Assembly (NCBI RefSeq): GCF_964213995.1
Contig: NW_027590123.1
Coordinates: 1,054,001-1,118,000, forward strand
Reading direction: 5' to 3'
Length of the DNA: 64,000 nucleotides
Origin: Mustelus asterias
Taxonomy: Eukaryota
This document shows, piece by piece, positions 10,137 through 10,797 of this stretch. Each line of letters opens with the position of its first letter. Positions within the stretch are counted from its first letter, which is position 1. The translations under genes and the position numbers were made by a program. The notes beneath the pieces are model-generated. The model was not told where the DNA came from, ran no database searches, and saw nothing but the letters and a program-made list of their open reading frames with translations.

Positions 10137-10438
10137 TGTTAAAAAATACTTTTTCAATTCTATCAAATCAAGTCCAATTCATGGTCTCAACAAGTTGAGA
10201 AATTTCCGATCCAAGCTGACAAGACAAGGCCTTCACTCCTGTCTTGCGCCTGACCTACATGAGCCAAGCTAATTGGAGTAGGTGCAGACTCACCTCCTCC
10301 AAGGCCTTTGCATCTTAGCCAAAAGGCCGATATGCCACTTTTAAAAATTGCTTCAAATGAAGCTTAAATGTAACCTAATGACCAAGCGCAGCATCCGATC
10401 CATACGACACTTGATTTTAGCCAAAGGGCCGAGAAGCC
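10137..10438 (-). mobile_element. U2 snRNA-headed SINE-like element, copy 1
   Basis: Minus-strand 5' end GCTTCTCGGCCCTTTGGCTAAAATCAAGTGTCGTAT (U2 nt 4-39, 3 mismatches) followed by a non-U2 structured body. Flanked by TTTGCAA(A/G)T(G/A)CAGAT repeats. Confidence 0.75.
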
Positions 10439-10454
10439 TTTTGCAAGTACAGAT

Positions 10455-10797
10455 TTTTTTTTGATTTTTTTAACATACTTTTCCAATTCAATCAAATCAA
10501 GTCCAATTCAGAGTCTCAACAAGTTGAGACATTTCCGATCCAGGCTGGCAAGACAGGGCAAGCGACCATTTACCCTGTCCTGGGCCCGATCTACATGAGC
10601 CAAGCTGATTGGAGGAGGGAAAGCAATTCCTCCTCCAAGACTTCATCTCTTTTGCATCTGAGCCAAAAGGCCGAGATACCGCTTTTAAAAATTGCTTCAT
10701 ATGAAACATATGAAGCTTCAATGTAACCTAATGACCTCAACCAAGTGCAGCATCCAATCCATACTACACTTGATCTTAGCCAAAAGGCCGAGAAGCC
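10455..10797 (-). mobile_element. U2 snRNA-headed SINE-like element, copy 2, with A-rich tail
   Basis: 10796-10761 reads GCTTCTCGGCCTTTTGGCTAAGATCAAGTGTAGTAT, a perfect match to vertebrate U2 nt 4-39. 3' tail TTAAAAAAATCAAAAAAAAA. Direct repeat TTTGCAAGTACAGAT at 10440-10454 and 10799-10813. Confidence 0.8.

Follow-up and report, generated by a model that had tools for sequence, protein, structure and literature searches.

The available part of the paper describing the short retroposons known as SINEU records them only from crocodilians and leaves their transcription open (Kojima, 2015; PMC4494074). The literature that we searched, including what was available of PMC7245038 and PMC5381603, contained no SINEU-like family outside crocodilians, the repeat libraries Repbase and Dfam lying beyond the scope of that search. 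The retrotransposons Keno and Utopia, according to the available part of PMC4640811, have their junction at nucleotide (nt) 39 of U2 snRNA. We have analysed two copies of a U2-headed element lying in a 64,000-nucleotide stretch of genomic DNA (the window, to which all positions below refer unless another contig or locus is named), together with the family to which they belong. The element is probably best explained as a high-copy, non-coding retroposon that is likely to have arisen from a remodelled U2 snRNA gene, whose U2 working end is predicted to be folded shut, and whose spread likely starts from source copies within U2 genes by way of the U2 promoter and resident Keno/Tx1. The family would offer a testable answer to the question of how promoter-less snRNA-headed SINEs get transcribed, namely from U2-gene source copies at the Keno site.

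The two copies, A and B, lie head-to-tail on the minus strand beside a tRNA-Gln gene, and three copies of a target sequence of 15–16 bp flank and separate them. The features of the locus are as follows.

10798..10813, minus strand: target-site duplication 5' of A, identical to that between A and B
10455..10796, minus strand: copy A of the U2-headed retroposon, the younger, ~2% from dispersed relatives
10761..10796, minus strand: outer U2 head of A (U2 nt 4–39), with the branch-point recognition sequence GTAGTA at 10762–10767
10725..10752, minus strand: strand of A antisense to U2, with predicted pairing to U2 nt 11–39 (helix P1); in B 10372–10393, with a 6-nt deletion
10694..10716 (A) and 10350–10363 (B), minus strand: hairpin P2, GCTTC..GAAGC
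10682..10693 (A) and 10338–10349 (B), minus strand: U-rich site AATTTTT, probably a decayed U2 Sm site without its G
10654..10679 (A) and 10310–10335 (B), minus strand: internal second U2 head, stem-loop I extended at its base (P3)
10609..10638 (A) and 10273–10302 (B), minus strand: hairpin P5, TTGGAG..CTCCAA, probably from U2 stem-loop III
10552..10579 (A) and 10223–10243 (B), minus strand: hairpin P7, GACAGG..CYTGTC, within outer helix P6
10513..10530 (A) and 10184–10201 (B), minus strand: terminal hairpin P8, its first G missing in B
10455..10483 (A) and 10137–10155 (B), minus strand: 3' tail with A-rich end
10439..10454, minus strand: target-site duplication between A and B
10137..10437, minus strand: copy B of the U2-headed retroposon, of the other subfamily, 6–8% from dispersed relatives, with two short deletions
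10122..10136, minus strand: target-site duplication 3' of B, with 2/15 mismatches to the other two and matching the empty site
10042..10113, plus strand: tRNA-Gln gene adjoining the insertion site, outside the element
24892..24906, minus strand: empty paralogous site with the target sequence in single copy

A U2-headed chain of hairpins had been annotated at 10150–10760, and as a description this stands; the elements themselves reach further, to 10796 in A and 10137 in B. The internal second U2 head, the AATTTTT between hairpins, the terminal hairpin and the hairpins TTGGAG..CTCCAA, GACAGG..CYTGTC and GCTTCA..TGAAGC had all been noticed in the first-pass annotation and were located in both copies, whereas the largest helix, a duplex of ~27 bp between the outer U2 head and the antisense strand at 10725–10752, had been overlooked.

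The first two target duplications have the same sequence, whereas the third shows two base differences, so that the insertion of B likely preceded that of A. More specifically, B would have inserted beside the tRNA-Gln gene and A subsequently into the 5' target duplication of B, after which the whole A+B block would have been duplicated to at least nine loci; indeed, the block with its tRNA gene is found at nine, the present locus included. Targeting of tRNA genes, for which Dewa provides the model, was considered and rejected, tRNA genes being found only at the nine duplicated copies of the block and at none of 21 other loci. The proposal that A and B are separate subfamilies that hit the same target is borne out by their p-distance of 0.14 (14%), by their shared target duplication and by the nearest dispersed copy being 2.2% away for A and 6.0% for B in a comparison set that includes the best matches to each. 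When a tree was built from 42 of the 80 aligned rows, grouping A and B as one clade was rejected (p-AU 5e-41), and a local duplication is thus not borne out. Nor is the target peculiar to this locus: copies of the family are scattered over the whole genome, and a minority of them lie at U2 nt 39.

Elsewhere in the window, a cluster of tRNA genes (for Gln, Leu and Glu, with decayed copies among them) is duplicated over 8700–35000 in blocks that are 80–87% identical, and a stop-to-stop frame of 362 aa at 39514–40602 on the plus strand matches a rhodopsin-family 7-transmembrane receptor.

The size of the family was gauged by searching 3.68 Gb of genome sequence with a 28-base 3' motif, which gave 4,642 exact matches and none for the reversed control; because only exact matches were counted, this number is a lower bound on copies. 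Of the matches listed on contig C1, the first 100 were taken up in 90 loci, which yielded 103 elements, 78 of them with the outer head and 27 with a head-to-tail neighbour, and a heuristic search found target duplications of 9–26 bp in 40 of the 77 full-length copies with adequate flanks. The element is non-coding and measures about 275–327 nt before its tail. Its head comprises U2 nt 1–38/39, and 391 copies of one junction type begin exactly at U2 +1. Internal T runs (T4 in both heads, T5 mid-element) would exclude transcription by polymerase III. Body and junction are common to the copies, which fall into several supported subfamily clades, so that this is a true family and not the sum of independent snRNA chimeras; the element is a dispersed retroposon of the SINEU-like class. 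Most copies lie at generic A-rich targets that have no likeness to U2, and a strict U2-like target consensus was not found for the dispersed copies, whose targets are A-rich followed by T. Flanking repeats resemble the shark HE1 SINE, and the host may accordingly be a shark. An Atlas search returned generic RT clusters only. At four loci (L086, L109, L142 and L147) a copy is inserted in or beside another that runs the opposite way, an arrangement from which long double-stranded RNA could arise. At L158 (1080–2220) an element copy is broken at its internal U2 head by two fragments, each composed of U2(1–94) plus LINE, which suggests that the internal head can serve as an insertion or annealing site.

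Two types of U2 gene are present in the genome: one forms an array on C24 with units of 1,833 bp, the other lies in short units on C21. The latter comprise tandem units of ~450 bp hemmed by Keno copies (L162, L163, L187, L188 and L197 of G000:C21). Comparison of the sequences suggests that the C21 type is the likely ancestor of the element body. When the columns of the internal head are removed, the body aligns collinearly with C21-type U2 from nt ~89 to 170–185 in all seven copies tested, over the Sm site and stem-loops III–IV, with scores of 46–59 compared with ~19 ± 4 for shuffles, none of 500 of which scored as high; against C24-type U2 the corresponding figure was 0–8 of 500. The removal was chosen after the data had been seen, and without it the signal is weak (1–178 of 200 shuffles). 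The U-rich site is probably a decayed U2 Sm site; that it marks the junction of an old tail-plus-head dimer is possible but less favoured, and an alignment of the two halves of the element is clear over the head only. The element would thus have arisen from a U2 gene that kept the head of nt 1–38, received an antisense strand in place of stem-loops IIa/IIb, lost the G of its Sm site, acquired the second head by insertion, had stem-loops III and IV reshaped and gained a new 3' domain. No pieces of U1, U4 or other snRNA were found in the element. An origin as an internally deleted Keno, in the manner of a SIDE, was also tried and rejected, since the U2 head alone matches a full Keno copy; the element body has no similarity to Keno sequence.

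How such an element would spread is suggested by its copies at U2 genes. A search for the element tail joined to U2 body gave seven matches, six of them elements abutting U2 nt 39 and the seventh, L157, something other than an element. LINEs with endonuclease, RT and zinc-binding Pfam domains and a ZCCHC3-like ORF1 occupy this site too, within the same U2 arrays; these bear a U2 head of their own and are called Keno here by site and domains (APE endonuclease plus RT, U2 nt 39). Two of 78 element copies stand immediately behind the tail of a Keno. An in-place copy in the C24 array (L178) is preceded by 1,400 bp of ordinary unit sequence, the match to the U2 unit being 99% over 1,446 bp, with an internal deletion in the element itself, and a copy in a C21 unit (L155) is preceded by U2 −259 to 46 and followed by U2 38–300. 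On other contigs, a single target duplication encloses both the element and downstream U2 at L148 and L153, and a U2 upstream flank is carried at L151, L154, L193, L195, L026 and L243. Dispersed copies with U2-gene flanks point to source copies inside U2 genes, of which the transduced flanks would be the footprints. We propose that such copies are transcribed by polymerase II from U2 +1 using the U2 promoter, that the resident Keno/Tx1 retrotransposon would supply the enzyme that copies the RNA, and that selection would favour the fold for preserving the RNA in a stable and copyable form that stays clear of the spliceosome.

Other observations count against this proposal. Only three element copies were present in the array stretches examined, and no source copy matched a major subfamily. 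Three bases of U2 flank precede the head in 11 of 391 full-head copies, which is near chance; an extra cap-derived G before +1 was not seen (4/30), and the upstream regions of both U2 gene types yielded no octamer. Similarity to Keno at the 3' end is weak: in a set of tails chosen by a partly shared motif, p ≤ 0.05 was reached by 8 of 21. The generic A-rich targets of most copies could be made by any L1/Tx1 enzyme.

The same SINE could alternatively owe its U2 head to template switching to U2 snRNA or to target annealing, with promoters that flank it by chance and U2-gene insertions as side effects, as in Kojima's model for the crocodilian SINEU. Repeated addition of heads is documented in the available part of PMC4494074, most copies of the present family are dispersed without a U2 flank, and four loci (L202, L203, L238 and L242) bear an extra U2 fragment before the head. 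However, the head–body junction lies at the Keno site and varies little (nt 35–39), whereas the SINEU-2 junctions given in the available part of PMC4494074 vary by up to 22 nt; moreover, the body is constructed for pairing with that particular head, and the transductions read as RNA from copies inside U2 genes. We regard a head acquired by template switching as unlikely, and favour transcription from source copies within U2 genes.

Several further observations concern Keno-type elements. A dispersed Keno-type 5' end (L194) carries ~100 bp of U2 upstream flank plus the U2 head, which suggests that Keno is also transcribed from within U2 genes. At G000:C24:44815176-44935375 (L185, L186) there is an array with a unit length of ~8,035 bp, in which every unit examined contains one intact U2 gene together with a Keno-type element, the tail of the latter adjoining U2 nt 39. 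In L180–L183, from the U2 array of G000:C24, eight U2 units align over 206 columns rather than 190, and the insertion of ~16 bp may be a scar of Keno activity. Within the window, 46777–64000 is a tandem array of ~7.06-kb units, 98.6–99.2% identical, accompanied by a 1.6-kb inverted piece at 45191–46778; its first two units have an open endonuclease/RT frame of 1,303–1,304 aa that is ~30% identical to Keno-type ORF2. The array has the look of a young LINE that was either amplified or inserted repeatedly in tandem.

Traces of an RNA stage were found among the element matches in L010–L157 (L031–L039 omitted). Three distinct copies are hyper-mutated from A to G on the sense strand, with A>G to T>C counts of 21/0, 18/0 and 14/1, and no comparable T>C copy was seen in the same set. 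Overall, A>G changes numbered 99 and T>C changes 59 (p=2e-6), C>T and G>A being balanced. Such an excess of A>G fits adenosine editing before reverse transcription, and the three copies are consistent with a double-stranded RNA stage, in which case they would be a fixed record of RNA editing on the intermediate. As many of the edits fall in predicted loops, the substrate may have been a long duplex from inverted copies and not the element's own fold.

GUAGUA is the branch-point recognition sequence of U2, and U2 nt 25–28 pair with U6 (available part of PMC13019295). In the element the antisense strand is predicted by folding to bury U2 nt 11–39, this sequence included. Compared with a perfect reverse complement of U2 nt 11–39, the majority antisense strand has differences at 12 of 29 positions: eight are A>G or C>T and preserve pairing as G–U, and the remaining four form two small internal loops. 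The predicted fold with P1 has an energy of −35.6 kcal/mol, compared with −24.9 when stem-loop I is forced, and is ~11 kcal/mol more stable. GUAGUA has a predicted unpaired probability of 0.00 in copy A; among copies, folding predicts pairing of the branch-point region in 59 of 73, and the predicted probability of stem-loop I is <0.5 in 53 of 53.

A bolder reading, and an improbable one, is that of a U2 gene turned parasite: its RNA, made from U2 promoters, would form a stable snRNP-like particle whose head switches between masked and open states and whose antisense strand pairs with host U2 in trans, modulating splicing or the supply of U2 while the element spreads to thousands of sites. Very improbable, in our estimate, is an snRNP-like mimic or regulator of U2, Sm-bound, trimethyl-capped and acting on splicing. 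In favour of this reading, the layout is collinear with U2, the Rfam U2 model (RF00004) gives copy A 56.4 bits over its whole length against a cut-off of 46, and the U-rich site between two hairpins is nearly invariant across copies. The first-pass annotation had suggested a U2 mimic on the grounds that the U6-pairing and branch-point region is kept; folding, however, predicts sequestration of that region in cis together with loss of stem-loop I, and other parts of U2 do not support the suggestion either. Stem-loop IIa is absent from the element, the subfamilies differ freely in the loops where U2 proteins would bind, and the canonical Sm site, AUUUUUG (available part of PMC5909452), occurs in just one of 80 copies, the hyper-edited L063, the other 79 being without the G. 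The preferred reading of a masked retroposon would make this a spliceosomal RNA rebuilt for retroposition, with its working end likely hidden and the G of its Sm site lost.

Folding distinguishes both copies from their shuffles (A, z −7.5, 0/100 shuffles; B, z −3.1, 0/200). Structure was analysed further in an alignment of 80 copies, the 78 from C1 together with A and B. RNAalifold gave a poor, gap-distorted consensus (−41 kcal/mol) and a structure from single-sequence folds was therefore used, comprising 80 pairs, a choice that biases pair counts in favour of the structure; helix P8 was excluded from the tests of one-sided changes given below because the sampling motif fixes one of its arms. 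Across the 80 copies 96.8% of cells are paired, compared with 28–42% for slid partners. Shared variation affects 31 of 152 paired but 75 of 129 unpaired columns, and indels and replacements are located in loops, in keeping with the earlier remark that stems persist while loops diverge. Covariation, proposed as a check on the structure, is weak in its classical two-sided form: there is one convincing two-sided pair, in outer helix P6, changed from G–C to A–U in 12 copies, but the number of pairs changed on both sides (four) is no higher than in shuffles (3.7; by pair count, 286 of 500 shuffles).

The claim that structure is under selection is moderately supported, by one-sided changes more than by two-sided ones. 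Pairing is kept by 21 of 31 variants common to at least four copies and by 22 of 84 private ones (p=7e-5). For transitions only, 21 of 25 shared changes keep pairing, through G–U wobble, against a null of 84/144, or 58% (p=0.006), and a direct comparison of shared with private transitions (22/38) gave p=0.051. These tests are phylogenetically non-independent and the structure was drawn from the sequences on which it was tested, so that constraint on the fold is likely and moderately supported, though unproven. That the fold is instead a neutral relic of inverted duplications, its stem conservation reflecting a young family and its wobble-keeping changes a mutation bias (editing, CpG decay), is hardly credible, for although two-sided covariation is weak, the structure was not independent of the test sequences and the sense-strand A>G excess makes G–U pairs without selection, the 21 shared transitions that preserve pairing include many of the kinds T>C and G>A, which lie beyond the reach of editing, indels and replacements fall in loops, and the G–C/A–U double change is present in 12 copies.

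Among known systems the closest is SINEU, and the comparison is made with the available part of its description (PMC4494074). SINEU-1, -2 and -3 resemble the present family in their U2-derived head, length below 500 bp, A-rich tail, internal T runs and repeated U2 pieces, in tandem insertions that sandwich a target duplication, and in the Tx1-type partner proposed for them; SINEU-3, too, represents a U2 gene with internal alterations. The present family differs in belonging to a probably non-crocodilian genome, in being young with at least 4,642 copies, in inserting at U2 nt 39 and in U2 arrays where SINEU is found in Mariner-N4, and in the antisense strand predicted to mask the head, none being described for SINEU in that part of the paper. 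With Keno and Utopia, as presented in the available part of PMC4640811, it shares the 3' junction at U2 nt 39, and the local Keno-type elements in the same arrays are also U2-headed; unlike Keno, the present element is non-coding, mostly dispersed and has a body sequence not common to the two. The SIDEs of R2 are likewise short parasites of a site-specific LINE in a tandem RNA-gene array, dependent on transcription of the host gene, but according to the available part of PMC3414825 they are internal deletions of the LINE freed by a ribozyme, whereas here the host RNA gene itself supplied the material of the element, with the host 5' end as its head. To U2 snRNA itself the element is tied by the head of nt 1–38, the second stem-loop I and the probably homologous region of the Sm site and stem-loops III–IV, and it is set apart by a branch-point region predicted to be sequestered, the replacement of IIa/IIb, an Sm site without its G, and the extra 3' domain and tail.
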